Positions 1-36,068 of a stretch of 37,046 nt of DNA are shown one piece after another. The notes under the pieces were generated by a model that saw only the letters and a list, made by a program, of their open reading frames with translations, had not been told where the DNA came from and did no database searches. Positions within the stretch are counted from its first letter, which is position 1. Each line of letters starts with the position of its first letter. The position numbers and the translations under genes were made by a program. This DNA is from a virus (Duplodnaviria > Heunggongvirae > Uroviricota > Caudoviricetes): IMG/VR virus record IMGVR_UViG_2896601577_000003, one strand, 5' to 3'.

Positions 1-141
1 TTACTGCTTACACTGTAAGAACGCCGCAAACTCCGCTCCCCAGAAGCTCATCCGTATTTCGCACAGCGAACCGTGCAGCATCCAGATGATGAGGATTGCC
101 GTCACGCAGAACGTGATGGCCGTAAGCGATTTTTGCGACAT
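1..141 (-). CDS. Hok/Gef-family type I toxin (small membrane peptide), chromosomal flank of the prophage
   Basis: 46-codon reverse-strand ORF (ATG 141-139, TAA 3-1), below the ORF-track length cut-off so read by hand: MSQKSLTAITFCVTAILIIWMLHGSLCEIRMSFWGAEFAAFLQCKQ. One hydrophobic helix followed by LCEIR...EFAAFL, the pattern I recall for Hok/Gef peptides. AGGAG about 8 nt upstream. Confidence 0.5.
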   Translation of the reverse strand: MSQKSLTAITFCVTAILIIWMLHGSLCEIRMSFWGAEFAAFLQCKQ

Positions 142-492
142 AGCGCTTGCTCCTTTTTCGGGGAGGCGCTAACCTATCACTTGCTTAGGGTAGACGGTTA
201 GGGCCTCGGTTAAACAAAAATGTTTTCCGGGGCCTTTCCACATCTGGCCTTCAGGTATTCCCTCCGACCATCAGCCGAAAGGCACCCGCGCGTAATCTAT
301 CGCTTTTTTGTTACTCCGGCAATTCTGCTCGTTAATTCTGAGGTAAGGGCAAACTCATCTGATTGTTTCCTCTGTGTGAAGTTGGCAGTTCATGCCACGG
401 GTAGACTGGCCCCCTGAATCTCCAGACAACCAGTATCACTTAAATAAGTGATAGTCTTAATACTAGTTTTTAGACTAGTCATTGGAGTACAG

Positions 493-854
493 ATGATTGA
501 TGTCTTAGGGCCGGAGAAACGCAGACGGCGTACCACACAGGAAAAGATCGCAATTGTTCAGCAGAGCTTTGAACCGGGGATGACGGTCTCCCTCGTTGCC
601 CGGCAACATGGTGTAGCAGCCAGTTATTTCTCTGGCGTAAGCAATACCAGGAAGGAAGTCTTACTGCTGTGGCCGCCGGAGAACAGGTTGTTCCTGCCTC
701 TGAACTTGCTGCCGCCATGAAGCAGATTAAAGAACTCCAGCGCCTGCTCGGCAAGAAAACGATGGAAAATTAACTCCTCAAAGAAGCCGTTGAATATGGA
801 CGGGCAAAAAAGTGGATAGCGCACGCGCCCTTATTGCCCGGGGATGGGGAGTAA
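493..854 (+). pseudogene. insC: IS2 orfA (InsC), frame-broken
   Basis: ORF 448..720 contains [44 protein letters not shown] (InsC N-terminus) and then leaves the InsC frame near 620. An in-frame TAA follows at 771-773 (MEN*). Intact InsC should be about 121 aa ending near 854. Confidence 0.7.
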
Positions 855-1717
855 GCTTAGTCAGCCGTTGTCTCCGGGTGTCGCGTGCGCAGTTGCACGT
901 CATTCTCAGACGAACCGATGACTGGATGGATGGCCGCCGCAGTCGTCACACTGATGATACGGATGTGCTTCTCCGTATACACCATGTTATCGGAGAGCTG
1001 CCCACGTATGGTTATCGTCGGGTATGGGCGCTGCTTCGCAGACAGGCAGAACTTGATGGTATGCCTGCGATCAATGCCAAACGTGTTTACCGGATCATGC
1101 GCCAGAATGCGCTGTTGCTTGAGCGAAAACCTGCTGTACCGCCATCGAAACGGGCACATACAGGCAGAGTGGCCGTGAAAGAAAGCAATCAGCGATGGTG
1201 CTCTGACGGGTTCGAGTTCTGCTGTGATAACGGAGAGAGACTGCGTGTCACGTTCGCGCTGGACTGCTGTGATCGTGAGGCACTGCACTGGGCGGTGACT
1301 ACCGGCGGCTTCAACAGTGAAACAGTACAGGACGTCATGCTGGGAGCGGTGGAACGCCGCTTCGGCAACGATCTTCCGTCGTCTCCAGTGGAGTGGCTGA
1401 CGGATAATGGTTCATGCTACCGGGCTAATGAAACACGCCAGTTCGCCCGGATGTTGGGACTTGAACCGAAGAACACGGCGGTGCGGAGTCCGGAGAGTAA
1501 CGGAATAGCAGAGAGCTTCGTGAAAACGATAAAGCGTGACTACATCAGTATCATGCCCAAACCAGACGGGTTAACGGCAGCAAAGAACCTTGCAGAGGCG
1601 TTCGAGCATTATAACGAATGGCATCCGCATAGTGCGCTGGGTTATCGCTCGCCACGGGAATATCTGCGGCAGCGGGCTTGTAATGGGTTAAGTGATAACA
1701 GATGTCTGGAAATATAG
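812..1717 (+). CDS. insD: IS2 orfB (InsD) transposase, DDE catalytic domain
   Basis: 301-aa ORF; sequence matches IS2 InsD as I recall it (…[32 protein letters not shown]…[19 protein letters not shown]…). Confidence 0.9.
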
Positions 1718-1728
1718 GGGCAAATCCA

Positions 1729-1924
1729 ACGGGATGCCCTCTGATGAGTGAATGGGGGAGGCGTGCTTTGAAGTGAATTTGTGGAAGGCTTCCAGTGTTG
1801 AGAAACATACGCCGCATTCTAGATTGTTACACTGATAATACTTTTGTCTCACGGTGTTTGAATCATTTTCCGGACGACTGGTGCGGATACGGGCAGATGC
1901 GCCACAAAGCGGACAACGGAACAT
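1729..1924 (-). pseudogene. ogr: Ogr/Delta-family zinc-finger late-gene activator, interrupted after codon 65 by IS2 (3' remainder at 332-396)
   Basis: N-terminus MFRCPLCGASARIRTSRPENDSNTVRQKYYQCNNLECGVCF has the C-x2-C ... C-x4-C spacing of P2 Ogr. ORF 1688..1924 runs into the IS2 end (the tail [11 protein letters not shown] is IS2-encoded and recurs on ORF 33127..33366). Joining 1729 to 396 across the duplication restores an 86-codon ORF ending TAA at 334-332. Confidence 0.7.
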
Positions 1925-2059
1925 AGCGACCTCTCTTATTGTAGTGCTTGCACTATTCTAGGTTGTATTCTCTAAGATTTAAACATGACTTTCTCTATAT
2001 AATGATTTTTAGCATTAGTTAATAAACGAACGGCACTCTAAGGAGCGCCGTCAAAGATA

Positions 2060-4918
2060 TTATTCTGATGTCACTCTTTGCGAGTGAGCTATTTTTAAAT
2101 CAGCGTTTCCTTCAAATACTACATTCAACTCATAGTTAAGAGTTAGCTTGAATTTTTCTGAGTCACTTTTGATATTCTCTGAAGTGACATTTACTAACTT
2201 ATTATTATCATATTCTCTAATAATTAATTTAGTGAAGTAGTTATCCTTTACCACAAGAGAAAATGGTTGATTAACAAATGGTAAGAAGTAAACCTTACGG
2301 GTACCGGATTCAGTAGTTATGTTCATAGAGCCATCATCATTTTTTCTCATTAGTTCTCTGAGGTTGGGATTATCGAAAAGCATACGATTATATTGCTGAA
2401 AGATCTCTTTACTCATCACAAGAACCAGTTTGCCAGCCAAGTCAGCAGATGATTTTATGTGATCAATCAACATATTGAAATCTTCTATTACGGTATGTTG
2501 CGAACAGCCAGTGCTAAATAAATTTGAAAGTATTATTCTCTGGATGTCCTTGAGAATTAAGTCTGCTTGAATATCACCTTCATTGATATAAGGGATGGAT
2601 TCTATTCCTTCGGCATACGGTTCTTTATCTATCTTAATAGATATCTTATGTTTTGTGAAACAATCGCTAGCCTGCTTAAAATCAATAGATTTGAAAAGTG
2701 AAAGAGGGAGCGTTTTCTTGATGCGTTTACGAAGATGTTCTGATGTTTTACGTGCAGTGCTATCTAGTCGATGTACATCTATGGCAGCATCCTGAAGTCT
2801 CATATCAAGATCTTTCTTTAGCATGTTAATATGCTCTTGAAGCAACTTTCTTAAGTTTTCTTTTTTTGTTTGGAGATCGTCCAATGTTAAAGTCAGCTTG
2901 ATTTTAGTGTATTCGATGGAGTTACAAATTTTTGATAATACTCCAATGAGTCGTTGCTTCTCACGATATGTTATATAGTTGTTTTCTATTGCTTCTTTTA
3001 TTTCTTTTGATACGCTATCGTTCTTGTTAGAAAAAATTAATAATAGCTGAACCCATGATTGTTCCATATCAATAAATCCACAGTCAAAAACATTACTGTA
3101 AACTCTGCCCATCACCATGTCTGTTTTATCATAGTCACGTAAACGCCTTGCTAAACTATTCATCCACCCATTGTGCTCCATATTTTCAGACCATGTCCAC
3201 AGGCAGATTCTAATTAATATCTTGATTAGTTGGCTTGCATTATCAATTTCTTCAGTGGGAGTTTCATATCCACCGGTTTGGTCAATAAGTTTACCCTCTA
3301 AAATAAGTTTAATGTAATGTGTCATTAGTTTGTCAGAAGTATTGATTCTTGATGTCAGATAAAGACATGTGCATATACGCATGTCAGTCAACGCATTTAT
3401 GATGGCAATATTGAACCACTCTCTGTCTGAATTGAAGTTTAGTTTTTTGGATATGAAAAAAACCGGGTTAAAAAGCTGGCCTTTGTAACTGTATTTTTCT
3501 ACCGAATGGCTGTCAATATTCATTGAGTGCTGCCATCGGTTAATAAGATCGACGGCTGTATCAATAGTAGAAGGATCGCGAGTCTGTGTTGCATCAATAA
3601 TCATCGATGGAAGTTCTTGTAGTTGCGTTTTGCAAAATAATTCAAATAAATCTGAATTCTCTGTATTGCAGAAACGAAAGTTTATGCTTTCTTGATATTG
3701 CTCCCAAACAGTGGTATAGGTTCTTAATATACGATTATAACGTGAACGAAGCGAGGCATTTAAGAGTGATTGGTTGTTTCGGAACCATTCTGTCAATATT
3801 GACCATTGTGAACGAGTAATTCCCATATAGATACAAAGTTCATTGCTGATAAGATGTTTTCTATTATTGATAATACGCACTCCGCTCCAAAGACATAATT
3901 CAAAAAATCTTTCAGAAAGATTAATTTTATCCATGGAATTATTTGATATTTTATAAACTTCATCTGAAAACTCATATTGAAAACTCCGTTCAAATAATTC
4001 TGTAGTGATCAGTAAGAAGTTATTGTTGGTATTATCATCTTGAAAAAAATACAAATCGCAGAGATTATTAAAGTTATTAATTAATGCAGAGATAGCATTG
4101 TCAAAACTAATGAGATCAGAATCCCGCAGATACATATACGTATCTGCTGTTATAGCCTGCATTGTAAGACTTACGGAAAAATCTCCTCCTTTAATCGGAG
4201 CCCTATAAAAACATTGCTTAAGTATTTTTATTAATAAGCTGTCTGGTTTGATATTTTTAACGCTAAAAAGTATCTTACCCGTGGATTCTGTTTCTTTTGT
4301 ACGATTATCACCAATGACAAATGACGCAAAATGATTCTTCTTTTTTAGTTGGTAATTAATAAGATTAAGAGTAAGTTGAAAAGGACGGTGATATAAACTT
4401 AACTCATCTTCCTTAGAATAACTGCTAGCCACAGATATGTATTCTCCTTTGTAATCAGCTTGCTTGATTTCTAAATTTGAATAGTTATGTTTTTGATAGA
4501 TAGGGTATAACCTAAGCTTGGCTGAGATTTTGTTACAAATATGGGGCATTACTATTTCGAAGGCAATGTATCGCTTTATAATTATTTGCCGTTTTACATC
4601 ATCAAGAATTTCAAGACTCACGATAAAGAACCAAATAGAAAGAACTATGTTTATCAAAAGCCATAATATGCTGATTAGACAAGCTATACCATAAAGATAA
4701 CTTCCAAAGACAGTTTTAATTAGTACACTGAGAAGTATAAATCCTGATAAGAAAAGCCCGCTGAGTCCAGCAAGCATGAATCCTGAGTAACGCTGATAAG
4801 CAGTTTGGGCTATTTTTCTATCTGCCTTTTTTTGGAATAAGATACTTACTAAACCTATAACAAGGGGTATACAATACCAATAATTGTCAATTGGCCACTT
4901 AAAATGGTTGTTTGCCAT
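2060..4918 (-). CDS. Hypothetical 952-aa membrane-anchored protein, unknown family (cargo gene in AT-rich island)
   Basis: Uninterrupted 2859-nt ORF in visibly AT-rich DNA. The first ~110 aa contain 3-4 hydrophobic helices (CIPLVIGLVSILF; FMLAGLSGLFLSGFILLSVLI; YLYGIACLISILWLLINIVLSIWFFIVSL). The remaining ~840 aa are Lys/Asn/Ile-rich with a coiled-coil-like stretch (…LTLTLDDLQTKKENLRKLLQEHINMLKKDLDMRLQD…). I found no Walker A, PD-(D/E)xK, HEPN or kinase motif by eye. Confidence 0.6.
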   Translation of the reverse strand: MANNHFKWPIDNYWYCIPLVIGLVSILFQKKADRKIAQTAYQRYSGFMLAGLSGLFLSGFILLSVLIKTVFGSYLYGIACLISILWLLINIVLSIWFFIVSLEILDDVKRQIIIKRYIAFEIVMPHICNKISAKLRLYPIYQKHNYSNLEIKQADYKGEYISVASSYSKEDELSLYHRPFQLTLNLINYQLKKKNHFASFVIGDNRTKETESTGKILFSVKNIKPDSLLIKILKQCFYRAPIKGGDFSVSLTMQAITADTYMYLRDSDLISFDNAISALINNFNNLCDLYFFQDDNTNNNFLLITTELFERSFQYEFSDEVYKISNNSMDKINLSERFFELCLWSGVRIINNRKHLISNELCIYMGITRSQWSILTEWFRNNQSLLNASLRSRYNRILRTYTTVWEQYQESINFRFCNTENSDLFELFCKTQLQELPSMIIDATQTRDPSTIDTAVDLINRWQHSMNIDSHSVEKYSYKGQLFNPVFFISKKLNFNSDREWFNIAIINALTDMRICTCLYLTSRINTSDKLMTHYIKLILEGKLIDQTGGYETPTEEIDNASQLIKILIRICLWTWSENMEHNGWMNSLARRLRDYDKTDMVMGRVYSNVFDCGFIDMEQSWVQLLLIFSNKNDSVSKEIKEAIENNYITYREKQRLIGVLSKICNSIEYTKIKLTLTLDDLQTKKENLRKLLQEHINMLKKDLDMRLQDAAIDVHRLDSTARKTSEHLRKRIKKTLPLSLFKSIDFKQASDCFTKHKISIKIDKEPYAEGIESIPYINEGDIQADLILKDIQRIILSNLFSTGCSQHTVIEDFNMLIDHIKSSADLAGKLVLVMSKEIFQQYNRMLFDNPNLRELMRKNDDGSMNITTESGTRKVYFLPFVNQPFSLVVKDNYFTKLIIREYDNNKLVNVTSENIKSDSEKFKLTLNYELNVVFEGNADLKIAHSQRVTSE

Positions 4919-5178
4919 TCGGTTAATGAATGCCTAAACGGGAAATAATGTAAAAGATTATTTTTTATAAATAATTCGTTTAAATATCCAACATAAAGTA
5001 GTACAAATGAAAAAGCTGATATGCAAAGTACTGATTTAACCGGTGAGGATGTTAATCTTATGATGTTTTTTTCAATAAAATTCCATTTTAAATTCGAATA
5101 AAATGGATTTTTAACCATTTTATTACGAACATAGTTCTTTGCTAAAATCTCTGTTGCACTTAAAAATTGTCCAATCAT
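4855..5178 (-). CDS. Small hypothetical membrane ORF (107 aa), either a separate gene or the frame-shifted N-terminus of the 952-aa gene
   Basis: ORF overlaps the 5' end of the large ORF by 64 nt in another frame. Contains a hydrophobic helix (VLCISAFSFVLLYVGYL). Same AT-rich composition. Homopolymers GGGG/AAAA lie in the overlap. Confidence 0.35.
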   Translation of the reverse strand: MIGQFLSATEILAKNYVRNKMVKNPFYSNLKWNFIEKNIIRLTSSPVKSVLCISAFSFVLLYVGYLNELFIKNNLLHYFPFRHSLTEWQTTILSGQLTIIGIVYPLL

Positions 5179-5426
5179 GAATTACTCTTCTATAAAGTGT
5201 GGGTCTACTAACTAAACTGGAACTTTTACTATTGAGTCATATTCCCTTGGACGGGATGGACTGTGAAGATTATACTTGACTTCCTCTGTCATGTGGGAAA
5301 AACATCCGTATTATTGTTAGCATCTGGTTGATGCCCCAACCTCTGACATCTAGTGGGCTGATACATTATCTTTTGTTCTTACTGTCAGTGTAGAAGCACA
5401 TCTCAAAAATAATATTTTTAAGAGAT

Positions 5427-6534
5427 TTATTCTGTTTCTGCTATCCATTCCGGGATTTTTGCTTCAAGTTCAAGCTGCGTGGTAAAGCCGCTGTTATCAA
5501 TGGTGTGCTCGGCTTTTGCAATAATCCAGTCCTGATAATCAATCTCGCTTTTAAAGCCTGTCACTGTGCCATGCATTTCGGGATAGAGTTCTGCACGACC
5601 ACGCGCCAGCGTGATGGAGAATGATGCGGCTCCGCGTTGTAGCTGCTGCCACTTTGCCGCCGCTGCGCGTCTTGCTGCCTGCTCGTTCTGATAAGTCTTG
5701 CGTAACACAAACACGTTGCCTTCCGCACCTTCCATATAGTCGCCTTCCCGACTGCTACTTTTCTCCTTTTTGGGTTTTGGCGGTTTGCGGCGTTTCACGC
5801 TGACTTTTTTCTTTTTCCCGTAATTAAGATCAAGCCAGTAGGCGCGTACCCCCGTATACGCCTCGCGGTCAGCAATGCGGAACTGATGGCGATCGCCGCT
5901 GCTGCGTGTAATGGCGAACGAGGGCAACGGCTGCCCCTGTGCGTTCACGCCACCACCTGGCATGATGAATAACAGATTGCCGCTTTTTACCGTGGCGATT
6001 GCTCCCAGCATTTCCGCCATGCGCGTAAGAAAGGACATGTCGCTTTCTTCGGTCTGGTCGGCGTGGTCGATTTCGATATCCATCAGCATTTCGCTGATTT
6101 GCGGTTTCAGACCGTATCGATGAGCGATGGCGGATACCACACGCTCAACGGTCACATCATGCCAGGACACCTCACGTTTAACGTTAAATTCATCCCGAAA
6201 ATCTGCGCTTCTGGCTGAAACAGTCAGCCTGTCCGGCGGTCCTTCGTGAGCGATTTCATCAACAATGTAAGTGCCTTTTTCTGTCAGCGGTTCCCCTTTC
6301 CAGCCAATGAGAACCGTCAGACGCGGCCCCGTGGCGGTAGCTGCAACTGACCATCCGCATCATCCAGCGTGATGGTGAGCTGGTCCGCCTCAAATCCCCG
6401 GTTGTCGGTCAGTTACAGGCTCATCAGGCGCTCCGCCACGCCTGACAGCGTTTTACCCTCCGAGAGAATATCAAAATCCGGCATTTTCACGGGGGCCGTG
6501 CCCTGACTGAGCAATTGCATGGTGGTGTCGGTCA
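5427..6534 (-). pseudogene. D: P2 gpD-like tail protein; C-terminal 247 codons intact, N-terminal third frame-broken
   Basis: ORF 5427..6170 matches the P2 D C-terminal region as recalled (…ATVKSGNLLFI…ITRSSGDRHQFRIADREAYTGV…REGDYMEGAEGNVF…SGFTTQLELE…). ATG at 6534-6532 gives MTDTTMQLLSQGTAPVKMPDFDILSEGKTLSGVAERLMSL, then an in-frame TAA and frame changes before 6170. Confidence 0.8.
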
Positions 6535-6692
6535 TCTACTCCCTCCCTGTGCGGCATGGTCGCATGTGCGTGCGGAGGGGGTTACTGCTTTTTGTTGTCG
6601 CCGTGGCGGGAGAACGGCGCAGGGGTGAGATTACGCGCGTGGTGGGTGATGATTGTTGCTGAATCATTTAACGGATACAAGGGGCTGAAGCT

Positions 6693-7877
6693 ATGAGTGA
6701 AACTCGTTTTCATGGTGCCCGTGTTACGGAGAATACCGACCTGGTAACAGCGATTAACGATGTTGATTCCAGCGTTATCGGTATCGTGGCAACGGCGGAT
6801 GATGCGGACGCGAAGCTGTTCCCGCTGAACAAGCCCACACTGCTGACCCGCGTCAATGACGTGCTGGGAAAATGCGGGACAACGGGGACGCTTTATCGTG
6901 CGCTTAAGGCCATCGCAGACCAGGTGAGCACAAAGGTGATCGTCGTTCGCGTGGCTGAACACAAAGAAGAAGACGGAAAGACGCAGGATCAACTGGTTAT
7001 CGGTGGTTCTGAGGATGACGGCAGCTATACGGGGATGTATGCGCTGCTTGTTGCAGAGCAGGATGAAAGCATCGGATACCGTCCGCGTATTCTGGCCGCG
7101 CCGGAGCTGGACACGGAGGCGGTAACAAAATCCCTGTGCGTGATTGCAGATAAACTGCGCGCGTTTGTGTATGCCTCATGTCATGGCTGTAACACGATGG
7201 CCGAGGCAATTACCTACCGCCAGAAATTCAACGAACGTGAGGTGATGCTCTTATGGCCGGACTTCATCGCCTACAACCCGAAAAATGGCAAAAACGAAAC
7301 GTTCCCCGCGCCTGCCTATGCGTGCGGCCTTCGTGCGTACATTGACCATGAACAGGGATGGCACAAATCGCTGTCCAACGTTCCGGTTAAAAATGTGCTG
7401 GGGATGTCGAGGCATGTGTTCTGGTCGTTGCAGGCCGAAGACAGCGATGCCAACAGCCTCAACAACAAAGAAATCACGACCATTATTCGTCGCAACGGGG
7501 TCCGCTTCTGGGGTAACCGCACACCGGAAACGAACGCCTACATCTTTGAGGTGTATACCCGAACCGCACAGGTGCTGGCTGATTCAATTGCGGAAGCGCA
7601 GTTTGAAACCATCGACAGTCCACTGACGCCTGCGAATGTGAAGGATGTTATCAGTGCCATCAGGGCAAAACTGGATTCACTGGTGACTGCCGGGAAACTG
7701 ATTGGCGCGGAGTGCTGGTATGACGTGGTGGATAACAGCACCACGGATTTACGTCAGGGACGTGTGCGTATTCGCTACAAATATACGCCCGTTCCGCCAC
7801 TGGAAGACATGGAGCTTTACCAGACGTTTACTGATGAATACTTTGAACCCGCATTTGCGGTGCTGGGAGGTGCCTGA
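6693..7877 (+). CDS. FI: Contractile tail sheath protein (P2 FI-like)
   Basis: 394 aa; motifs …FPLNKP…RILA…LRAF…REVMLLWPDF…EQGWHKSLSNV…RFWGNRT…TRTAQV…YTPVPPLE… match the P2 FI sheath family. AAGGGG RBS upstream. Confidence 0.9.
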   Translation: MSETRFHGARVTENTDLVTAINDVDSSVIGIVATADDADAKLFPLNKPTLLTRVNDVLGKCGTTGTLYRALKAIADQVSTKVIVVRVAEHKEEDGKTQDQLVIGGSEDDGSYTGMYALLVAEQDESIGYRPRILAAPELDTEAVTKSLCVIADKLRAFVYASCHGCNTMAEAITYRQKFNEREVMLLWPDFIAYNPKNGKNETFPAPAYACGLRAYIDHEQGWHKSLSNVPVKNVLGMSRHVFWSLQAEDSDANSLNNKEITTIIRRNGVRFWGNRTPETNAYIFEVYTRTAQVLADSIAEAQFETIDSPLTPANVKDVISAIRAKLDSLVTAGKLIGAECWYDVVDNSTTDLRQGRVRIRYKYTPVPPLEDMELYQTFTDEYFEPAFAVLGGA

Positions 7878-8353
7878 TGGCTGTGCCAAAACATCTTCGC
7901 TTTTTTACGCTGTTTGTGGATGGTGAAAACGAAGTGGGTAATGTGACGTCCGTCACTCTGCCTAAGCTGACGCGCAAAACCGACAGCTACCGGGGTGGTG
8001 GCATGATGGGTGCGGTAAGTATTGATCTCGGTCTGGACGACTCCGCGCTTGATGCGAGCTTTGTCATGGGGGCGCAGTTCGTGAGCTGTTCCTTAAGTAT
8101 GGCGGCACGATTGACGGCACGCTGCTGCGTTTTGCGGGTGAATACTACACCGATGCAGAAAGCGACCTGTATGAAGTCGAAATGCGCGGACGTGTGACGG
8201 AAATTGATATGGGGGAAGCCAAACAGGGCGAAGCCACATCACACACTTACGCCATTAAAACACCTACTACAAGCTGAGTGTTAACGATCGCCCGTTGTGG
8301 GAGATTGACCTGCTGAACTTCATTTACCGGAAGGACGGGGTAATGACTCCAAC

Positions 8354-8731
8354 TTATTGATAGTGTTTTATGTTCAGATAATGCCCGATGACTTTGTCAT
8401 GCAGCTCCACCGATTTTGAGAACGACAGCGACTTCCGTCCCAGCCGTGCCAGGTGCTGCCTCAGATTCAGGTTATGCCGCTCAATTCGCTGCGTATATCG
8501 CTTGCTGATTACGTGCAGCTTTCCCTTCAGGCGGGATTCATACAGTGGCCAGCCATCCGTCATCCATATCACCACGTCAAAGGGTGACAGCAAGCTCATA
8601 AGACGCCCCTGCGTCGCCATAGTGCGTTCACCGAATACGTGCGCAACAACCGTCTTCCGGAGCCTGTCATACGCGTAAAACAGCCAGCGCTGGCGCGATT
8701 TAGCCCCGACGTATCCCCACTGTTCGTCCAT
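8354..8731 (-). CDS. insB: IS1 InsB (expressed as InsAB' by -1 frameshift)
   Basis: 125-aa [43 protein letters not shown]… matches IS1 InsB. Confidence 0.9.
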
Positions 8732-8775
8732 TTCCGCGCAGACGATGACGTCACTGCCCGGCTGTATGCGCGAGG

Positions 8776-9051
8776 TTACCGACTGCGGCCTGAGTTTTTT
8801 AAGTGACGTAAAATCGTGTTGAGGCTAACGCCCATAATGCGTGCAGTTGCCCGGCATCCAACGCCATTCATGGCCATATCAATAATTTTCTGGTGCGTAC
8901 CGGGTTGAGAAGCGGTGTAAGTGAACTGCAGTTGCCATGTTTTACGGCAGTGAGAGCAGAGATAGCGCTGATGTCCGGCAGTGCTTTTGCCGTTACGCAC
9001 CACCCCGTCAGTAGCTGAACAGGAGGGACAGCTGATAGAAACAGAAGCCAC
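8776..9051 (-). CDS. insA: IS1 InsA
   Basis: 91 aa [46 protein letters not shown]… matches IS1 InsA. Confidence 0.9.
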
Positions 9052-9219
9052 TGGAGCACCTCAAAAACACCATCATACACTAAATCAGTAAGTTGGCAGC
9101 ATCACCGAAGGACGGCAAGGACATTGTGCCCGATCGCATCCGTTCCGCGCTTGGGCTTGGCTGATAAGTAATATGCTGGCGGCGCAGTGCGTCGCCTCTG
9201 ACTGAAAAGGAGACAACAG

Positions 9220-9594: not shown

Positions 9595-9758
9595 TCACCC
9601 TGGTGTGCTTTGAGCACATCGAAGATCTGGTGGCGGATATTGCCGCCATTTTTAACTGGTCGCCCGCCGAAATCTTCATGATGACGCCCTGCGAAGTGGT
9701 TAGCTGGCGTGAGCGAGCGGCACTTCGTAGCGGGAATGCAGACAATGAAGACTCTTGA
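9492..9758 (+). CDS. E' extension reached by programmed -1 frameshift (E+E' fusion)
   Basis: -1 frame is open from 9492. A run of seven A (9490-9496, …ATT AAA AAA ATG… in the E frame) lies exactly where the two frames overlap. Confidence 0.55.
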   Translation, partial: KNVVTRFYSVVRCGCKFYERARLWREERAGDGSVITLVCFEHIEDLVADIAAIFNWSPAEIFMMTPCEVVSWRERAALRSGNADNEDS

Positions 9759-12551
9759 TATCCGGGTCGCTTTCAGCGCCGTTGACAGGCTGACCCGGCC
9801 TGCCGAAAACGCCCGCCGCCTGATGGGGCAGTTTGGTGACTCCATCCAGCGAACGCAGGGGGCGATCAAAAATCTCGAGCGTCAGGCGCGATCATTTGAG
9901 CGCGCCCGTGACGCTGTCAGTAAAGCGGATGCGGGCATCGTGAAAGCACGACGCCAGCTTAACGCCCTTAATCAGTTACAACGCACGGGTACAGTGCTCA
10001 GCGAAAAACAACAAAAGCTGATGCAGCAGTTAAGCACCCGGCTTGAACGCCTGAATGAATCGCGCACACGGGAAATTCAGAAAATGCGGGAGCTTGGCGG
10101 AGAGCTGAAACGCCACGGCATTTCCCTGACAGGCAGCGATAACACCATCCAGCAGGCCATCAGACGCACCGAACAGTACAACAACCAGCTTGAACGCGAA
10201 CGGCAGGCGCTTGCGCGTGTAACACGGGCGCGTGAGCGGTATTCGCGCGCGCAGGAAACAGCGGGAAAACTGAAAACAGGTGGTGCGCTGGCAATTGGTG
10301 CGGCAGCGGCGGGCGGCTATGCTGCCGGGCGTTTTTTGCAGCCTGCGATCGGGTTCGGCAAAGAGATGTTCCGCGTTCAGGCACTGACGCGAATCGACCA
10401 GAACAGCCCGCAGTTTAAGGCGCTGCGTGAGCAGGCGTTAAAACTTGGCTCTGAAACGCAGTTCACCGCAGGCGATGCCGCCAGTGGACAGGCATTTCTT
10501 GCAATGGCTGGCTTTACACCACAGGCCATTCAGGCTGCGCTCCCTGGCGTACTGAGCATGGCAACGGCTGGCGGTATGGACCTCGGTGAGACGGCGGATA
10601 TTGGCTCAAATATTCTGACGCAGTTCGGTCTTTCTGCTGACCAGATGGACCGGGTCGGCGACACACTCACCGCAGCGTTTACCCGTACCAACACTGACCT
10701 TCGCGCACTGGGTGAAACCATGAAATATGCAGGTCCGGTGGCGGGTAAGCTGGGAATATCTCTGGAGCAGGCCGCAGCGATGGCGGGCGTGCTGGCGAAT
10801 ATGGGTATCAGGGGGAGTGATGCTGGTACGGCAATGCGTGCCAGCCTGGCTCGTCTGGCATCACCGCCAAAGGCGGCAGCAGAGGCGCTGAAAGAGCTTG
10901 GCGTGTCTGTCTCGGATGCCGGGGCAAAATGCGCCCGATGGAGGATGTGCTGGCTGACCTTTATAAAGCTACCCGCAAATACGGGGAAGTTGACCGGGTA
11001 TCGTTCTTTAAGGACATTGCCGGAGAAGAGGCTTTCACATCATTTATGGCCCTCGTTGATGCGGCAGGTGACGGCTCCTTACCCAAACTGAGAAAAGAAC
11101 TTGAAGGCGCGCGCGGTGAGGCTGAACGCACGGCAAAGGTTATGGCCAACAACCTTGACGGCGATCTGAAATCACTCAGCAGTGCATGGGAAGGGTTGCG
11201 CATCCGCATTGCAGATCTGATTGACGGTCCGCTGCGTTCTGTCACGCAGTGGCTCACGCGTGTGGTATCAAAGGTGACGGCGCTGGCGCAGGCCCATCCC
11301 GCACTGACGCGCCAGCTACTGATTGCAGGCGGTGCATTGCTGGCAATGACTGCAACGGTTGGCTCGTTGTCGCTGGCTATTGGTGTGCTTGCTGGCCCGC
11401 TGGCAAAACTGCGTCTTGGTTTTTCCCTCCTGACCGGATCAATGAATGCTGTCAGGGTTCTGCCAGCACTATGGGGAATGGTGACGGGTTCCGTTTCTTT
11501 ACTGGGAGGCGCTATCGGGGCGTTGTTCAGTCCGGTTGGTCTTATCGTGGCTGCGCTTGCCGGAGCTGCCGTTCTTATCTGGAAATACTGGGATCCCATC
11601 AGGGCATTTTTTGCCGGGGTGTTCAGCGGGATTATGGAAAGGCTGACCCCGTTGCGCGAAACATTTGAACGGTTTGGTCCTGTTTTTGACGCAATCGGGA
11701 GTGGGATCAGCCAGGTGTTTAACTGGTTTAAATCGCTGCTGTCACCGATGGAGTCCAGCAAGGAAACTCTGGATAAATGTACCAGTGCTGGCGAGATATT
11801 CGGTAACGTTCTTGGCGGTGCGTTACAACTTGTTCTGACACCTGCAAAAATGTTGCTGGATACGCTGGCGTGGATACTTGAAAAGCTTGGTGTGCTTCCG
11901 GATGAAGCGGAAAGGGCGCGCAAGAAAATCGAAGACGCACAGCGTGCGGCCATTCTTCAGGACAAGGTTGCCTTGCTTCAGGGGGACCTGGCGAAAATCA
12001 ATCCGCCGAAGCCTGTGGAAAATGGCAATGGCACCGGAGGTGATAACCCCAAAGACAATAAACCGCTCACAGACAGCAATACCGGTACGCTGCGCAGACT
12101 CAGCAAAATTGCTGATAACACAGGTAAGCTGGTTGAGGAGACGAAAAAACGCATTGGCCCCGGCGATATTGTCTTTAAAAACCTGCCCCGAGCACTTGCT
12201 GTTCGTGGGGAGTGGCAGGAGCGGAAGATTGCGCAGGTCAGTAAGCCTGCCCCCGCAATTAATATCACACCCGTGGTTCCGGCTCCGCTGCCTCCGGCGC
12301 TGGTCCCTGTTGTTGCGGCCAGCTCCCGCCCGGTGGCGGAGGCTATACGATCTCCAGTGGCATCAGTTCCTGTAACTTCCCGTAACCGGGAGCCTGTTGC
12401 CTCCGGATTTGGTGGTGAAATTCATGTTCATCTGCATAACGTTGTTACGCAGAATCCCCGCGAACTGGCGAAACTGGTCGGTGAAATGGTCAGGGCAGAA
12501 ATGGAACGGCGCGCCCGTGCCGGGCGTGGCTGTTTTTACGATAAAGATTGA
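9736..12551 (+). pseudogene. T: Tail tape-measure protein (P2 gpT-like), split into two overlapping ORFs by a frame break
   Basis: ORFs 9709..11091 and 10929..12551 together give an ~810-aa Ala/Gly-rich protein with a hydrophobic central segment, typical of tape-measure proteins. The frames switch between about 10900 and 11090. Confidence 0.85.
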
Positions 12552-15715: not shown

Positions 15716-17186
15716 TTAAATACTCCCCGCGTTATACCACGTCCCATTAATGCAATACTGAATTGGCCTTGCCTGTGTTGTATCAATTAATTCATCACGG
15801 TTTCCGTTAACTGAACCCGTAACGACATAACCTGACCTGTCAGACCAGCCGGGACCATTCCATGTCTGAACAGATGACAGACCGCCAAGGCGAATACCTG
15901 TAATAAACCTTGAGTTACATTCTGCCCGCGTATATGCACCAACATCTCCCGCTGAAGGTTTTCGTGTCGTGGTATAGAAATCTGACCAACCTAATTCAAC
16001 CCGGTAATGACTCCAACTTATTGATAGTGTTTTATGTTCAGATAATGCCCGATGACTTTGTCATGCAGCTCCACCGATTTTGAGAACGACAGCGACTTCC
16101 GTCCCAGCCGTGCCAGGTGCTGCCTCAGATTCAGGTTATGCCGCTCAATTCGCTGCGTATATCGCTTGCTGATTACGTGCAGCTTTCCCTTCAGGCGGGA
16201 TTCATACAGTGGCCAGCCATCCGTCATCCATATCACCACGTCAAAGGGTGACAGCAAGCTCATAAGACGCCCCAGCGTCGCCATAGTGCGTTCACCGAAT
16301 ACGTGCGCAACAACCGTCTTCCGGAGCCTGTCATACGCGTAAAACAGCCAGCGCTGGCGCGATTTAGCCCCGACGTATCCCCACTGTTCGTCCATTTCCG
16401 CGCAGACGATGACGTCACTGCCCGGCTGTATGCGCGAGGTTACCGACTGCGGCCTGAGTTTTTTAAGTGACGTAAAATCGTGTTGAGGCTAACGCCCATA
16501 ATGCGTGCAGTTGCCCGGCATCCAACGCCATTCATGGCCATATCAATAATTTTCTGGTGCGTACCGGGTTGAGAAGCGGTGTAAGTGAACTGCAGTTGCC
16601 ATGTTTTACGGCAGTGAGAGCAGAGATAGCGCTGATGTCCGGCAGTGCTTTTGCCGTTACGCACCACCCGTCAGTAGCTGAACAGGAGGGACAGCTGATA
16701 GAAACAGAAGCCACTGGAGCACCTCAAAAACACCATCATACACTAAATCAGTAAGTTGGCAGCATCACCATTCAACCCCATAACCATCACGAGCCGACCT
16801 GTAGGAAATGCCACCATTTTTATAATTCACACGGAATTGTACGGCAGGACAGCTACCAGCATTTATATTAAAGTGAAGAATTAATGTAGATGCACCACCA
16901 ATCAGGGCGTTATATGCACTACTATCCCAATTCCATCCAATGGATGTATCACCATTAACAGTATTACCTGTTTGTCGGAGTGCAAATGCATTGACATTTT
17001 TGGCACTAATTGAAATATCGCTAGAACCATCAAAACCAACTCCAGCAATTTTTCGTGCTGTTTTCAGCTTTGTTGCAGTAGCGGCATTGCCGGACAGTTC
17101 CCAGAAAGGCCACCGCTGAATGTTTGTCGATTGGTCCAGGTATTCGCTGTACTGAGTAACGGTATTTTCTCCCCGCTTGTGCCGAG
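15716..17186 (-). pseudogene. Tail-fibre variable C-terminal segment (Sv') joined in frame to H, interrupted by IS1 copy 2
   Basis: Reading on from H through the crossover site gives …AKNVNAFALRQTGNTVNGDTSIGWNWDSSAYNALIGG…DGYGVE | IS1 | …GWSDFYTTTRKPSAGDVGAYTRAE…IQYCINGTWYNAGSI, stop at 15718-15716. Confidence 0.7.
16003..16769 (-). mobile_element. IS1 copy 2 inserted inside the invertible tail-fibre cassette
   Basis: Same termini as copy 1. Perfect 9-bp target-site duplication ATTCAACCC at 15994-16002 and 16770-16778. InsB intact (16018..16395); insA frame-broken at a C-run (ORFs 16440..16667 and 16532..16714). Confidence 0.95.
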
Positions 17187-18476
17187 TTCTCGTAAACCGA
17201 GGTATTCGATAACGGCAGCAACGGTCGATTTCGCAAGAATATCCCGCCCGACTTTTGTCAGGGTTGCCAGGCTGGCGACATCATTCCCCGTAAAATACGG
17301 AAACCTGTCTGCCGCAGTAGCAAGCCCGGCCAGCGCCGTCAGGGTGGCATCTTTCGGTTGCTTACCCGCAAGCGCGTTAGTCATGGTGGTCGCAAAATTC
17401 GGGTCGTTTCCCAGCGCCGCCGCTAACTCGTTCAGCGTATTCAGTGCGTCAGGTGACGAATCTACAAGGGCGGCAATCGCAGCCATAACGAAAGCCGTGC
17501 TTGCGATTTGGGTATTATTCGTTCCCTGTCGCGCAGTTGGCGTTGTTGGCGTTCCGGTCAGCGCAGGACTGTTTAAGGGCGCTTTCTTGTTCGTTTCATC
17601 CATTACCGCCTTAACCGCTTTCGATGTCGCGGCCAGTGTTTCAGACGTGCTGTTGGTGGCACTACTGAGCTGGACTATCCCTTTTTGTGCCGTCGTGGCG
17701 TCCTGAGCGGTATATTTTGCGTTAGCAAGGTCATACGCGGCCTTTACTGCTTTCGGCGTTGCAGCCTGCGTTTCAGACGTGCTGTTGGTGGCGCTACTGA
17801 GCTGGACAAGGCCTTTTCGCGTCGTGCTGGCATCCTGCGCAGTATATTTACCGTTAGCAAGATCATACGCGGCCTTTACTGCTTTCGGCGTTGCAGCCTG
17901 CGTTTCAGACACGCTGTTAGTGGCGCTACTGAGTTGAACAAAGCCTTTTGCGGTCAGCGAGGCGTCCGGGTGACGTCGTGACTGTTCATGCTCTTTCAGT
18001 TTGTCATCCACGTAATCCACTGTGGCCATCACCATGGTGTTGTCCACGGTAAGCGCCACGGTGGCAGTGCTGGATACGGTCAGAATGGTGCGAAATGTTT
18101 GTGCACGACCGGACCCTTCGGCAACGGCTGGCTTGTAACTTTCGGCAGTATTTCCCACCGCGATTAAATCGCCGTGCTCATCAAATACACCAATTTCCCG
18201 GATCCAGAATCCGCCCGTTTCAGGAGGAATAACCAGCTCCGCAATAATGCGGTTCTGATGTGTTGCGTCCAGGATGACGCGATTAACAGTATGTCGCCAC
18301 ACCTCATGCACCAGACGGGTCTGCTTACTGTCTGGTGTGGGCAACGTGCCGCCACCGTCGCCCACGGCCATATGAGTCAGGCGGACAGGCTTACCATCTG
18401 GCGCGGCTACCTGAGCTAATTTTTTTGCACCCGTATCGGTGATAATGGTTTTAAATTTTCGTGTTGTGGTACTCAT
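17064..18476 (-). CDS. H: Tail fibre protein, constant N-terminal part (P2 gpH-like)
   Basis: 470-aa ORF with three tandem copies of a fibre repeat (…VQLSSATNSTSETQAATPKAVKAAYDLAN…). The ORF ends at 17064 only because of a 1-nt break near 17100; the reading frame otherwise continues through the crossover site into Sv'. Confidence 0.85.
   Translation of the reverse strand: MSTTTRKFKTIITDTGAKKLAQVAAPDGKPVRLTHMAVGDGGGTLPTPDSKQTRLVHEVWRHTVNRVILDATHQNRIIAELVIPPETGGFWIREIGVFDEHGDLIAVGNTAESYKPAVAEGSGRAQTFRTILTVSSTATVALTVDNTMVMATVDYVDDKLKEHEQSRRHPDASLTAKGFVQLSSATNSVSETQAATPKAVKAAYDLANGKYTAQDASTTRKGLVQLSSATNSTSETQAATPKAVKAAYDLANAKYTAQDATTAQKGIVQLSSATNSTSETLAATSKAVKAVMDETNKKAPLNSPALTGTPTTPTARQGTNNTQIASTAFVMAAIAALVDSSPDALNTLNELAAALGNDPNFATTMTNALAGKQPKDATLTALAGLATAADRFPYFTGNDVASLATLTKVGRDILAKSTVAAVIEYLGLRELGTSGEKIPLLSTANTWTNRQTFSGGLSGNCPAMPLLQQS
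17187..17212. repeat. gix/hix-like 26-bp crossover site (right boundary), inside the H coding sequence
   Basis: TTCTCGTAAACCGAGGTATTCGATAA; its reverse complement TTATCGAATACCTCGGTTTACGAGAA matches the site at 13734-13759 at 21/26 positions. Confidence 0.7.
17600..17990. repeat. Three tandem ~132-bp repeats inside H (tail-fibre repeat motif)
   Basis: Near-identical DNA units, for example starting 17731 and 17863, encoding KG(L/I)VQLSSATNS(T/V)SETQAATPKAVKAAYDLAN(G/A)KYTAQDA…; boundaries approximate. Confidence 0.6.
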
Positions 18477-19008
18477 GCTTAATCGCCTGGATAAATGGTA
18501 ATAACTTCACCGTCATAAGTTGCCGCCGCTGCGAAAATATCCCCGGAATTTCCTGAATGATATTCAGCCCTGTCATGTGGCGGCTGACCGGGCGGGCATC
18601 AGCAATCAACCGCTCCATTTCCAGATACATTTCCTCCGTCACGCCACTGTCCAGCGTGCCGACTTCAACGGTAAATGTTCCCGGTTCTCCGCCGAACTCC
18701 CACCACTCAGACACGCGAATGAGGTATCCCAGCGGCTCAATGGCCCGGCGCAGTGCGCTGATGGTCCCTTTGTGTCGGTGTATCAGCCATGCATCACGAA
18801 TAACCTGTCGCTTTGTCTCTTCCGGCCAGTTGCGATCCCAGCGGTCAACGGAAAACGCCCAGGCGAGATAAGGCAGCAGATGCACCGGGCAGGTGTCCGG
18901 CGACCACAGCGTGTTGAGGTCTACCGGAATGTCTGTAATGCGTGTTCCGACGGCTTCGGCACAACGCATGAAATTGCTGGCTGATGGTGGTAACAACGAA
19001 TTACTCAT
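18451..19008 (-). CDS. I: Baseplate protein (P2 gpI-like)
   Basis: Start MSNSLLPP… at 19008 overlaps the J stop (ATGAGTAA); the ORF-track start at 19041 is an upstream in-frame extension. Position between J and H. Confidence 0.75.
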   Translation of the reverse strand: MSNSLLPPSASNFMRCAEAVGTRITDIPVDLNTLWSPDTCPVHLLPYLAWAFSVDRWDRNWPEETKRQVIRDAWLIHRHKGTISALRRAIEPLGYLIRVSEWWEFGGEPGTFTVEVGTLDSGVTEEMYLEMERLIADARPVSRHMTGLNIIQEIPGIFSQRRQLMTVKLLPFIQAIKHEYHNTKI

Positions 19009-19896
19009 TGCGTCCACCTTCGCTGATGGTGAATGACTCACAGCGCGCCGCCTGTATGTCGCTGATGGCCATATTCTGTGTGGGTTCGATTATCTCCACG
19101 CGTTGCACACCGTGCACATGCAGTGCGGCAGCAATGGCGGACAACGCCACGTCCTGACCGATAAGCCCTGCTCAGCCAGCCACTTCCTGAACGACGATTC
19201 AGCCGCGGCCAGAATAGGTTCGGATTCCGGGCCGGGGTAAAAGTACAGTTTTGCATTCAGCCGCCATGTCACGATTCTGGCACTCTGTACGGTCAGGCGG
19301 TCGGCCACCGGGCGGGTATCCTCTGCATTCAGAACGGCGCGAACGGTATTAAGCAACGCCTCCGTTGCTGTGCCGTCGCCCTCAGTGGACAGGATGGAAA
19401 CCGTCACGTTGGCCGGAGACGGGCTGATGGCCTGCGCATCGCGTACCAGACCGCTGGCGCTGCGTGCAAAATACTCGTATGCACCTGACGGGCCAGCAAC
19501 ACTCAGACCGTCATATGCCCGTTGCGCCCGTAGTCTCAGCGAGGTGTCACTTTCCATCACTGCATCGGTGGTATCCGTTGCCGGAGTGATAACCAGGCGC
19601 TTTGTGTTCATATTGCCCGCGAGGTTGTCCAGGTCTGTCCCGGCGCTGTGGCTTAGCATGCAGGCGCGTGCACCCTCATTGACCCGCTGGCGTAACAGCA
19701 TTTCACGAAACGACATGGTTTGAGCGATAACGTTAAGGGGTTCCGATTCCAGCTCCAGCGCGGCGGAAACGGCTTCACGCTGTTCGGCGGGATAGGACGC
19801 AATCATCATGGCCTTTGTGTCAGCCAGAATTGCCTCAAAGTCAGGCTCCGCGATGATGGCGGGTTCCGGTAACTGTGAAAGGTCAACGGCAGGCAT
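19001..19896 (-). CDS. J: Baseplate protein (P2 gpJ-like), one frame break near 19172
   Basis: ORF 19090..19896 (268 aa). The C-terminus …IGQDVALSAIAAALHVHGVQRVEIIEPTQNMAISDIQAARCESFTISEGGRNE* is read in a shifted frame after a G-run; stop at 19003-19001. Confidence 0.85.
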
Positions 19897-19899: not shown

Positions 19900-20250
19900 T
19901 TACTCCCTCAGCGTGATGGTTAATTCAACATTCTGCATGGTCTGCATGACAGTGCCCGACAGCGTCACCCCGGCGCGGCCTCCTGCCTTCCAGACAACGT
20001 CGATAGCGTCCAGGGCAATGCGGGGTTCCCATCGTGTCAGCGCAATCACGGCAGCACTCATGCATTGCAGACGCGTGGTGTTATTCATGGGTTCGTCAAT
20101 CAAATCAGGCACAAGGCTGCCATATTCCCGTCGCATAACCCGGCTTGCCAGCGGGGTGGTCAGGATGTCCCTGACTGACTGTTTCAGGTGCTCCATATCG
20201 TTCAGGTTTCCCGTTCCGTCCGGGTTCATTCCTGTGTAGCGGGTTGTCAC
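19900..20250 (-). CDS. W: Baseplate wedge protein (P2 gpW-like)
   Basis: 116 aa, GTG start overlapping the V stop (GTGA); position and size match P2 W. Confidence 0.8.
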   Translation of the reverse strand: MTTRYTGMNPDGTGNLNDMEHLKQSVRDILTTPLASRVMRREYGSLVPDLIDEPMNNTTRLQCMSAAVIALTRWEPRIALDAIDVVWKAGGRAGVTLSGTVMQTMQNVELTITLRE

Positions 20251-20827
20251 TGCGGGCCTCCTGTCGAATCGCTGCCACCTTTAACGCCACCGTGTTTATG
20301 CGTATGCACTGTGATGCCGTTTGAGGTGAAATTGCCGCCGCTGTGCGTGATATTGCCGCTCATCTTTCCCCTTTTGTGACGTCAAGCGTCGCCGTTCTCA
20401 GAAGGTCTGTGCATTCCACGACGGGCGTATCCAGTGTCACGCTGACGGATGCCTGCAGGGTGGCTGTTTTCATGCCGCTGGCGCTCAGTGCGCCTGCGTC
20501 CGCGTCGTAGCGGAACACCGCGCCATCCGGCGCGCTGACCACGATTTCTTTCAGGCTTTTGCCGGGGGCCGGAATGGCATCACTCCACAGGCTGCCAATT
20601 ATCATGGCGGTTTCCGGGTTGCCGCCAATGCAGGCAATTACCACCTGTTCGCCTGGTGATGGCGGCAGCCACACATTGAAGGCTCCCGCGCGAGTGGTGT
20701 TCCAGCGCAGCCAACCTGTTTCCAGTTCGCCGCTGCGAACGCGCACGCGCCAGGACTTCTCATCAACTTCAGAGATGATCCCGGTGCGGATGATATTGCT
20801 CAGTAGCCGCATGAGTTCTGCGCTCAC
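20247..20827 (-). CDS. V: Baseplate spike protein (P2 gpV-like), one frame break near 20368
   Basis: ORF 20360..20827. The C-terminal ~38 codons (…MSGNITHSGGNFTSNGITVHTHKHGGVKGGSDSTGGPQ*) are read in a shifted frame after a C-run. Confidence 0.85.
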
Positions 20828-22196: not shown

Positions 22197-22464
22197 CTTT
22201 TGCAATATCGTTGCGTAGCTGTTCACGTCTTACCTCTCCGTCCTGATTGCGTTGCTGATTTTCCACGCGGAGTTGCGCCAGCACCTGCTGCATATCCTGT
22301 ACCCCGGCGCTGATGATATTCAGGGTGTCGGCGGTACTTTTCAGGGTGCTGGCCTGCGCTTCGTTTCTGGCGTTCTCCCGGCCCAGCGACCACGACAGAC
22401 GCATGGATGTTCCCCATCCGGCAGTCAGAAGGAAAGCGACGCCAAGCGTGGGCCAGAGCTTCAT
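22057..22464 (-). CDS. lysB: Rz-like inner-membrane spanin (LysB-like)
   Basis: Start MKLWPTLGVAFLLTAGWG (N-terminal TM) at 22464 overlaps the endolysin stop (ATGA), followed by a coiled-coil-like region. Confidence 0.7.
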   Translation of the reverse strand: MKLWPTLGVAFLLTAGWGTSMRLSWSLGRENARNEAQASTLKSTADTLNIISAGVQDMQQVLAQLRVENQQRNQDGEVRREQLRNDIAKDECAHALPDARFTDRLRRHAERATASAVSPAYTADADHTGNASPLP

Positions 22465-22852
22465 GCCGGATAGGCTCCGTGTGGTAACTGAAAATGCGGT
22501 CCGTCTTTCAGGGTCTTCCAGTCGCCGCCCCATTCCACCGGAATATTCAGTTCCCGGCTGGCCTGTCTGAATGCTGCTGCGATTTTTTCGTACAGCGGCC
22601 ATTCCCATGACACCTGGCTGCCGATATAAGCCACAACATCCACGGCATGCCCCGTAAGGTGGCGGCTGTTCATGGTCTGGCTCTTACCCGTGGCCACCAG
22701 TTGCTTCTGGCGGTAACGGCTGCGCAACCCTTCGGTGATACCAAAATCCACTTCCGAGATTTCCAGTGCCGTCGGGTCACTTTCACCAGATCAGGATTTA
22801 CACCCTGCAAATTCTTTTCGCTCCGGCTGCTGAATTTAAATGTGTTGCTCAT
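22461..22852 (-). CDS. Endolysin, M15-family L-alanyl-D-glutamate peptidase type (T5-Lys-like); one frame break near 22770
   Basis: MSNTFKFSSRSEKNLQGVNPDLVKVT… then, after a G-run, …EVDFGITEGLRSRYRQKQL…SRHLTGHAVDVVAY…DGPHFQLP. The H-x3-G-x-A-x-D and D-x2-H motifs fit zinc M15 peptidases. Confidence 0.75.
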
Positions 22853-26752: not shown

Positions 26753-26873
26753 GATGGCAAAGCGTAACAGGCTGATACAAAGGGCTTTTGTTGTAAGAAA
26801 ACGGCCAGAACAGAGGGTTAAGGAGAACAGTTTCGCGCGCGGGTAATCTTCCTGTAATTACTCAGGGGGAGCA

Positions 26874-28623
26874 ATGATTCAGGACGCTTTTGTGCGCCAG
26901 CGTGCGCGGCAACTTTACTGGCAGGGTTATCCGCCCGCAGAAATATCACGTCTGATGGGAATAAACCCGAACACGATTTATGCGTGGAAAAAACGTGACC
27001 AGTGGGATGAAACGCCACCCGGGCAGCGTGTCACGCAGTCCATCGATGCGCGCCTCATCCAGCTTACTGAAAAACAGAATAAAACAGGCGGTGACTTTAA
27101 GGAAATAGACCTGCTGACCCGGCAGCTTAAAAAGCTGCATGATGGCCAGCCGGATGTGATGGCCGCAGGAAAGAAAGGCCGGGCGAAAAAACTCAAAAAT
27201 CATTTCACGCCGGAACAGATTGCCGCACTGCGGGAAAAAATCATCAGCAGGCTGGAGTGGCATCAGCGGGGCTGGTTTGACTCCCTGACCCTTTGCAGGG
27301 AAGCCGGGATACGTAACAGGATGATCCTGAAATCCCGACAGATTGGGGCGACCTGGTATTTTGCACAGGAAGCACTGCTGATGGCGCTGCGTGACGATGT
27401 GGCGCAACCTTACCAGCGTAACCAGATTTTTTTGTCTGCGTCGCGTCGTCAGGCGTTCCAGTTTAAAAGCATTATTCAGAAGGCGCGGCTGAAGTTGATG
27501 TGGAGCTGAAAGGGGGCGATAAAATCATCCTCTCCAACGGCGCAGAGCTGCATTTTCTCGGCACTTCTGCTGCGTCGGCACAGTCCTATACGGGCAATTT
27601 TTATTTTGATGAATTTTTCTGGGTCAGTCGCTTTGCTGAACTGCGCAAGGTGGCTGGCGCTATGGCAACCCTCAGCGGACTGCGGCGCACCTACTTCTCC
27701 ACGCCATCCACCGAAACGCACGAGGCATACGCCTACTGGAACGGCGACCGCTGGAACGAGAAAAAGGCCTCGCATAAACGCCAGCGTTTTTCTGTGGACT
27801 GGAAAACGCTGCATAACGGGCTTATCTGCCCTGACCGGACGTGGCGGCAAATTGTCACGCTGGAAGATGTGGTTAATCACGGCTGGAAACACACCGATAT
27901 CGACGAAATTCGTGATGAAAACACCGAAGACGAGTTCCTCAATCTCTATATGTGCGAGTTTGTCCGCGAAGGGGAATCGGCATTTAACCTGAATATCCTG
28001 ATTGGCTGCGGCGTTGACGGATACGACGACTGGAAAGACTGGAAACCTTTTGCTCCCCGCCGATGGGGAATCGTCCGGTATGGATTGGGTATGACGCAAA
28101 CGGCAGCAGTGGCAACGGCGACAGCGGCGCTGTGTCCGTGGTGGTTCCTCCGTCTGTTCCTGGTGGCCGTTTTCGAACGGTGGAGACGCGACGCGTTCAG
28201 GGGCTGGAGTTTGAAGAACAGGCCAGAGTCATTGAAGAGTTCACGTGTCGCTACAACGTGGAACACATCGGCATTGATGTGACGGGCGGGAACGGGGAGG
28301 CTGTTTATCAGATAGTGAAACGGTTTTTCCCTGCCGCTATTCCGTACACCTTCACGCTGTCATCAAAACGGTCGCTGGTACTGAAAATGCTGCAAATAAT
28401 GCGTGCCGGGCGGTGGGAATACGATCGCGCCGAACGCGAGCTGGTCGCGGCCTTTAACGCCGTGCGTAAGGTGAAAACACCGGGCGGCTTTATCACTTAC
28501 GAAACGGACCGAGCGAGGGGGATCAGCCACGGCGACCTTGCGTGGGTAACCATGCTTGCTGTCATTAACGAACCGATTGGCGGCGAAGGAGAAAACGAGC
28601 GTTTCACGGTTATGGAGTTCTGA
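26874..28623 (+). CDS. P: Terminase large subunit (P2 gpP-like), split into three overlapping ORFs by two frame breaks
   Basis: ORFs 26874..27509, 27500..28282 and 28063..28623 together give ~583 aa with terminase features. Breaks lie near 27500 and between about 28070 and 28280. Confidence 0.85.
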
Positions 28624-31745: not shown

Positions 31746-32902
<1,157 letters not shown>

Positions 32903-36065: not shown

Positions 36066-36068
36066 CGA

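Follow-up and report, generated by a model that had tools for sequence, protein, structure and literature searches.

The window analysed here, a 37,046-nt stretch of viral DNA (IMG/VR record IMGVR_UViG_2896601577_000003), very probably represents the dead remnant of a P88-like prophage from the Shigella lineage, in which an IS2 element sits inside the late-activator gene ogr, has been passed on by inheritance and has itself decayed. In the account that we propose, IS2 transposed into codon 66 of an 86-codon ogr gene and duplicated 5 bp of target, ACGGG, as is usual for this element. It swapped the end of the Ogr protein for residues encoded by IS2 and severed the gene from its own 3′ end, leaving intact the zinc-finger domain, the part that is homologous to Ogr of phage P2. 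After insertion, the IS2 copy decayed differently in different lineages, with the copy in the window losing its own transposase, and the insertion itself counts as one early hit in the decay of the prophage. No observation spoke against this structural account.

The IS2 element, a member of the IS3 family with its transposase genes on the plus strand, occupies positions 402–1728 and is a defective copy of 1,327 bp, as delimited by end-to-end alignment and by the pattern of its termini. The left end reads TAGACTGGCCCCCTGAATCTCC from position 402 and the right end reads GGGGCAAATCCA, finishing at position 1728. Copies of the 5-bp target-site duplication ACGGG lie immediately outside, at 397–401 on the left and 1729–1733 on the right. 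Both termini and both duplications could be read directly from the DNA, which bears out the original prediction of an exact IS2 at 402 and 1728 flanked by ACGGG on each side. A 5-bp flanking repeat taken alone would arise by chance with p of approximately 1/1024. Evidence for the empty site came from E. coli: with IS2 and one copy of the repeat excised, a 760-bp stretch was 100% identical to the uninterrupted sequence of strains VG38-53E1, ETEC4088 and GDSC2BY4G, in which ACGGG is present as a single copy. An assembly artefact or a chance arrangement was also considered for the junctions and is ruled out, because the same junctions recur across many independent assemblies.

Comparison with known copies identified both the element and its defects. 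Annotated IS2 copies match the window IS2 from end to end at 99.6% identity, and megablast returned IS2 matches in 4,854 of the 5,426 complete E. coli genomes, thousands of them at an identity of at least 99%. Relative to the annotated IS2 of E. coli O121, the sequence is identical end to end except for a 4-bp deletion and the substitution G771T. Thus the window copy resembles E. coli IS2 in its termini, its orfA and orfB, its A6G slippery site and its 5-bp target duplication, but differs in being 1,327 bp rather than 1,331 bp long and in having a disabled orfA (493–773, plus strand, with the ATG at 493), in which CAGC is deleted between positions 616 and 617 and a GAA codon has become TAA at 771–773. 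The orfA/orfB layout with its A6G frameshift site (806–812) is still present, and orfB (301 aa, extending to 1717) is otherwise intact. Because orfA carries both the frameshift caused by the 4-bp deletion and the TAA stop, this copy is unable to make either OrfA or OrfAB transposase. The two orfA changes did not occur together in any IS2 of the 5,426 E. coli genomes, where the best identity was again 99.6%.

The gene that IS2 interrupts is encoded on the minus strand in two parts. The 5′ part (1729–1924) starts at position 1924 with a protein sequence beginning MFRCPLCGAS and comprises codons 1–65 and the first base of codon 66, including the whole Ogr/Delta zinc-finger domain. The 3′ part (332–396) comprises the last two bases of codon 66, codons 67–86 and a TAA stop at 334–332, and encodes a conserved C-terminal motif, W..LP.SHRG..Q..L. 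Deletion of 402–1733 in silico yielded an ORF of 86 codons that ends in ...GIPWHELPTSHRGNNQMSLPLPQN before the TAA at 334–332; this deletion and the empty sites together corroborate the original proposal that joining the flanks restores an 86-codon frame. At the uninterrupted E. coli sites the restored ORF carries the annotation 'ogr/Delta-like zinc finger protein', and the exact 86-aa protein is recorded on 477 contigs. Upstream of the ogr ATG, by approximately 30 bp, lies a sigma-70-like promoter match (1955–1983, minus strand), which is preceded by a terminator-like hairpin (2029–2052) that follows the cargo ORF described below; both are matches to consensus only.

Assignment of the split gene to ogr, as first proposed, was upheld by three comparisons: a match to Pfam PF04606 (Ogr_Delta) over residues 3–49 of the restored protein (52.3 bits against a cutoff of 26.3, E = 5.3e-14), 95–96% identity to the corresponding ORF of P88-type phages and 38% identity to P2 Ogr. 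The Ogr/Delta family also includes B of phage 186 and Delta of P4. Four cysteines, C4, C7, C32 and C37, are present in the restored protein and invariant across the alignments. With proteins of P2-like phages from Klebsiella and Enterobacter, the restored protein aligned over residues 1–83; similarity therefore extends past the zinc finger, which removes the reservation attached to the original prediction that it might end there.

The restored protein resembles P2 Ogr in its MF.CPLC start, its C-X2-C...C-X4-C arrangement and its 38% identity over residues 1–66 (E = 9e-15), and the gene resembles P2 ogr in lying at the end of the prophage beside gpD and the attachment site, as P2 ogr adjoins attP. 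It differs in length (86 aa as against 72 aa), in the spacing between the cysteine pairs (24 residues as against 22 in the C-X2-C-X22-C-X4-C of P2 Ogr) and in having an additional C-terminal extension with a conserved motif of its own. The closest phage counterpart is an unannotated ORF of P88 (NC_026014, 34476–34733), which is 95–96% identical over all 86 residues, and the same identity was found in the other Xuanwuvirus phages 500465-2, Chuche, PhiR44_2 and Shae_phiSM. As in the window, D lies upstream of ogr and hok downstream in P88 and the Xuanwuvirus phages; in P88 itself, D ends at 34433, ogr starts at 34476 and hok comes next. These phages are intact, in contrast to the window, where IS2 splits ogr, D and ogr are separated by a cargo gene, and the remainder of the prophage is degraded.

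Judged by the order and similarity of its genes, the host element is a P88-like prophage (Peduoviridae, genus Xuanwuvirus) located between ihfA and btuC. Alignment to phage P88 by blastn gave 95–98% identity across most of the late region, with collinear content and order. The window is also collinear with the prophage of an intact relative, E. coli VG38-53E1, in which the order is ihfA, hok, ogr, a 1,039-codon cargo gene, D ... int and btuC. P88-like phages differ from P2 in that the FI–U tail operon is inverted, and ogr follows either D or an inserted cargo gene. Downstream of ogr, at the end of the prophage next to ihfA, lies a hok/sok-type toxin–antitoxin module (1–287, minus strand) that is free of IS2. 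It comprises a Hok/Gef ORF of 46 aa at 1–141 and an Rfam sok match at 128–287 (46 bits, E = 1.4e-8, under the gathering score), and appears intact.

Between gpD and ogr lies the cargo gene, an AT-rich gene of 1,039 codons on the minus strand (2060–5178), which in the window is broken by a frameshift near 4860–4900 into ORFs of 107 aa and 952 aa. Searches of the 1,039-aa protein against Pfam and with PADLOC found no match; in E. coli relatives the gene is annotated as an 'MFS transporter'. An HxsDBCA system or other genes occupy the same position in other prophages, which marks this position as a variable cargo slot. Elsewhere in the window, the segment from 13.1 to 17.9 kb carries two oppositely oriented tail-fibre assembly genes, as does the invertible segment of P88, and a 132-bp tandem duplication with copies 83% identical lies inside a tail-fibre gene (17608–17871).

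The insertion is shared across Shigella. The same IS2 insertion was found in ten of ten Shigella chromosomes examined, with an identical right junction in every one; the sole difference at the left junction among these ten is that ACGGG is short of one G in some lineages. We conclude from the common junctions that the insertion is old and vertically inherited, not recurrent in the clade. As universal as the insertion is the nonsense codon S41* in D, which is common to all ten chromosomes, and two deletions in FII occur in every chromosome that retains that region. The IS2 insertion, D S41* and the FII frameshifts, all of them shared where the region is present, may have arisen in any order. 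When the same insertion was sought in the 5,426 complete E. coli genomes, none carried it, and the nearest cases were independent IS2 insertions at other positions. One candidate for a shared left junction (H77, from E. coli TO6) was rejected: it is an IS cluster that adjoins a hok gene and is unrelated.

The present product of the split gene, a 78-aa fusion protein, is labelled 'MULTISPECIES [Shigella]' in the database and occurs in exactly this form on 169 contigs, and it was found in CP000036 and many other complete chromosomes. We take CP000036 to be S. boydii Sb227. The assignment to Shigella is uncertain to the extent that it depends on the cluster label in the database and on this identification of CP000036. 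Decay of the IS2 copy differs by lineage, with a 12-bp deletion in one and a 1-bp deletion in another. Among the loci compared, CP026872 alone shares the 4-bp deletion of the window copy, and the TAA at 771–773 is private to the window.

Lesions are not confined to ogr. A map made by tblastn, protein by protein, against the intact relative revealed at least 15 lesions in the prophage besides the IS2 in ogr. Genes of the late region are affected as follows: D (5430–6535) carries the nonsense codon S41* and a 1-bp deletion; the tube gene FII (7877–8338) carries two 1-bp deletions and is also interrupted by IS1; T (9745–12548), J (19004–19896), V (20250–20812), the endolysin gene (22464–22852) and the portal gene Q (28623–29677) each carry a frameshift; and the terminase gene P (26874–28620) carries two. 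The IS1 in the tail tube gene FII (8339–9106) is flanked by a 9-bp target duplication, and a second IS1 lies in the tail-fibre region (16003–16769) in direct orientation relative to the first. In the related Shigella chromosome CP026872, the DNA between the two IS1 positions is apparently missing. A partial IS911 (31746–32902, minus strand) abuts a 265-bp remnant of the IS2 right end (32903–33167) that is 100% identical to 1464–1728; together these take the place of approximately 4.4 kb of prophage DNA, with the result that the replication gene A, several early genes and half of parM are missing. Between int and the repressor gene C there is another IS3-family element (approximately 34758–36066), and its E. 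coli matches are annotated as 'IS3 family transposase' with an AL1L pseudoknot.

We considered whether gpD might already be truncated in the intact E. coli relative. In VG38-53E1, the annotation gives gpD (locus L002, 7304–8413) as a 'VgrG/Pvc8 family' protein of 266 aa. The truncation was rejected: on translation, the 369-aa ORF is fully open, and the RefSeq start of this gene is probably set too far downstream. Given the full-length D ORF in VG38-53E1, the D lesion is specific to the Shigella lineage.

What the insertion did to Ogr depends on what the protein lost. At present the gene reads as an ORF at 1688–1924 on the minus strand, with its stop codon at 1688–1690, that encodes Ogr residues 1–65 followed by 13 IS2-encoded residues. 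The original prediction that the Ogr frame reads into IS2 after codon 65 is correct in detail: 65 codons and 1 nt precede the junction, and 13 IS2 codons follow. The last 21 residues of Ogr have thereby been exchanged for 13 from IS2. The insertion point, in codon 66 of 86, is 16 residues beyond the zinc-finger domain (residues 3–49) and falls exactly between P65 and W66 of a tail motif, IP[W/R/Y/H]xx[L/F]PxSH[R/Y]GxxQ[L/M]xL. This motif is kept in relatives down to 47% identity and the linker that precedes it is variable; conservation of the motif while the linker varies freely implies selection on the Ogr tail. An AlphaFold model (15 relatives) gave moderate confidence (pLDDT approximately 70–78) for residues 1–52, modelled as three strands plus one helix; confidence was low for residues 53–86 (pLDDT 46–56). 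The model fits an Ogr whose zinc domain is folded and whose tail is flexible, and IS2 leaves residues 1–52, the part predicted to be folded, untouched.

In phage P2, Ogr is required for late transcription, binding repeats at approximately −55 and contacting the C-terminal domain of the RNA polymerase alpha subunit (PMC3152322). That requirement lends weight to the reading in the original prediction, according to which IS2 leaves a null allele of the only late activator and is enough alone to shut off all the P2-type late operons of the prophage. In its favour, the window, searched as a whole, holds one Ogr/Delta homologue only, the tail that was removed bears the conserved motif, and the ogr transcript is left without its native 3′ end. 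Against it, the Pfam domain and the predicted folded part are intact, and full-length P2 Ogr aligns with residues 1–66 only, such that the 65 retained residues correspond to approximately the whole of P2 Ogr; as P2 Ogr matches no further than this, P2 works without this tail. The motif is likewise missing from Salmonella relatives of 71–75 aa that are 62–65% identical. Moreover, Gebhardt and colleagues, in the Journal of Bacteriology in 1993, are said to have found that C-terminal truncation of P2 Ogr was without effect on its activity. The claim that IS2 alone would silence the late genes is thus not supported as it was stated, since the zinc-finger domain is intact and only the tail is lost. 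It is also moot, as this prophage carries many independent lesions in late and replication genes, with D, FII, T, J, V, P and Q among the broken late genes. We judge the reading of the insertion as a self-sufficient null allele to fall somewhat short of an even proposition. Loss of activator function by the 78-aa product, considered by itself, is inferred from sequence and appears evenly balanced. Whatever the activity of the fusion, the number of independent lesions makes the IS2 insertion one hit in the decay of the prophage and not the sole cause of its silence.

The intact zinc-finger domain and the intact promoter-like site upstream would also suit an opposite reading, that Shigella has kept the fusion of Ogr(1–65) as a working, domesticated transcription factor. 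The identical 78-aa product on so many contigs is compatible with this, as is the finding of 0 differences in 1729–1924 among the compared loci against approximately 17 variable sites in the adjacent IS2. However, these loci were selected because they encode the 78-aa protein exactly, which makes the invariance of 1729–1924 a product of the sampling; and at the IS2 rate a stretch of 196 nt should hold only approximately 2.5 changes, which leaves the invariance comparison without power. The known targets of Ogr, the late operons, are pseudogenized, and no other target is known. We therefore regard domestication of the fusion as very improbable.

Late promoters of P2 carry a dyad, TGT-N12-ACA, centred near −55. 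In the window the exact dyad occurs 10 times against 9.5 expected, and none of these matches falls in the FI/D or P/O intergenic regions; two of them, at 5287–5304 and 5383–5400, lie just upstream of the cargo gene. In both of these divergent intergenic regions we found the element TTTGTTGT-N12-AGAAC, identical at 6591–6615 (FI/D) and 26787–26811 (P/O), located 75–90 bp upstream of the start codons of FI and P, and conserved identically in P88. The element is one base off the P2 dyad, although the pattern was derived from these two sites and the match is not independent. We propose these elements as candidate Ogr-binding sites.

Related E. coli prophages carry IS2 close to the same place as the result of separate events. 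In STEC384/379, an independent IS2 lies 9 bp from the window site, inside the ogr tail, with the duplication GTTCA; in ETEC4068/4075, an IS2 lies 144 bp upstream of the ogr ATG with the duplication GGAAA; and in strain 165, an IS2 lies in the cargo gene with the duplication CATCG. In the three E. coli insertion loci IS2 spans 3393–4723 (L004), 3736–5066 (L005) and 4136–5466 (L006). Together with the window this makes four independent IS2 insertions of one orientation that fall within approximately 1 kb, in related prophages that share the ihfA–btuC site, a pattern that could mean either that IS2 prefers the 3′ end of ogr and its neighbourhood as a target or that such insertions are favoured for locking the prophage in. 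However, an IS was found nearby in only 9 of approximately 1,550 E. coli genomes with the locus, the genomes do not count as independent, a shared orientation in four of four insertions has p = 1/8, and the four target sequences share no obvious motif. The small number of cases, from non-independent genomes, hints at a regional preference of IS2 near ogr, but a preferred target or selection for locking-in seems unlikely as an explanation. A combined account, in which the 78-aa fusion is still active in Shigella and IS2 repeatedly targets, or is selected at, the end of ogr and so locks prophages in, is one that we consider quite unlikely. We return to the view that IS2 entered ogr once in this lineage and was inherited as part of a decaying prophage.

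The kind of event is well understood: it is IS-mediated pseudogenization in a cryptic prophage of a Shigella-type genome, and its products are already publicly annotated. As a clean and fully documented case of IS-mediated prophage decay, its value lies mainly in correct annotation. It also cautions against assuming that every split regulator gene is a null allele, and against crediting any single lesion with the silencing of a remnant that has more than 15. For the Ogr family, the C-terminal motif of the P88-type protein, which is absent from P2 Ogr, may bear on how this subfamily of activators works.
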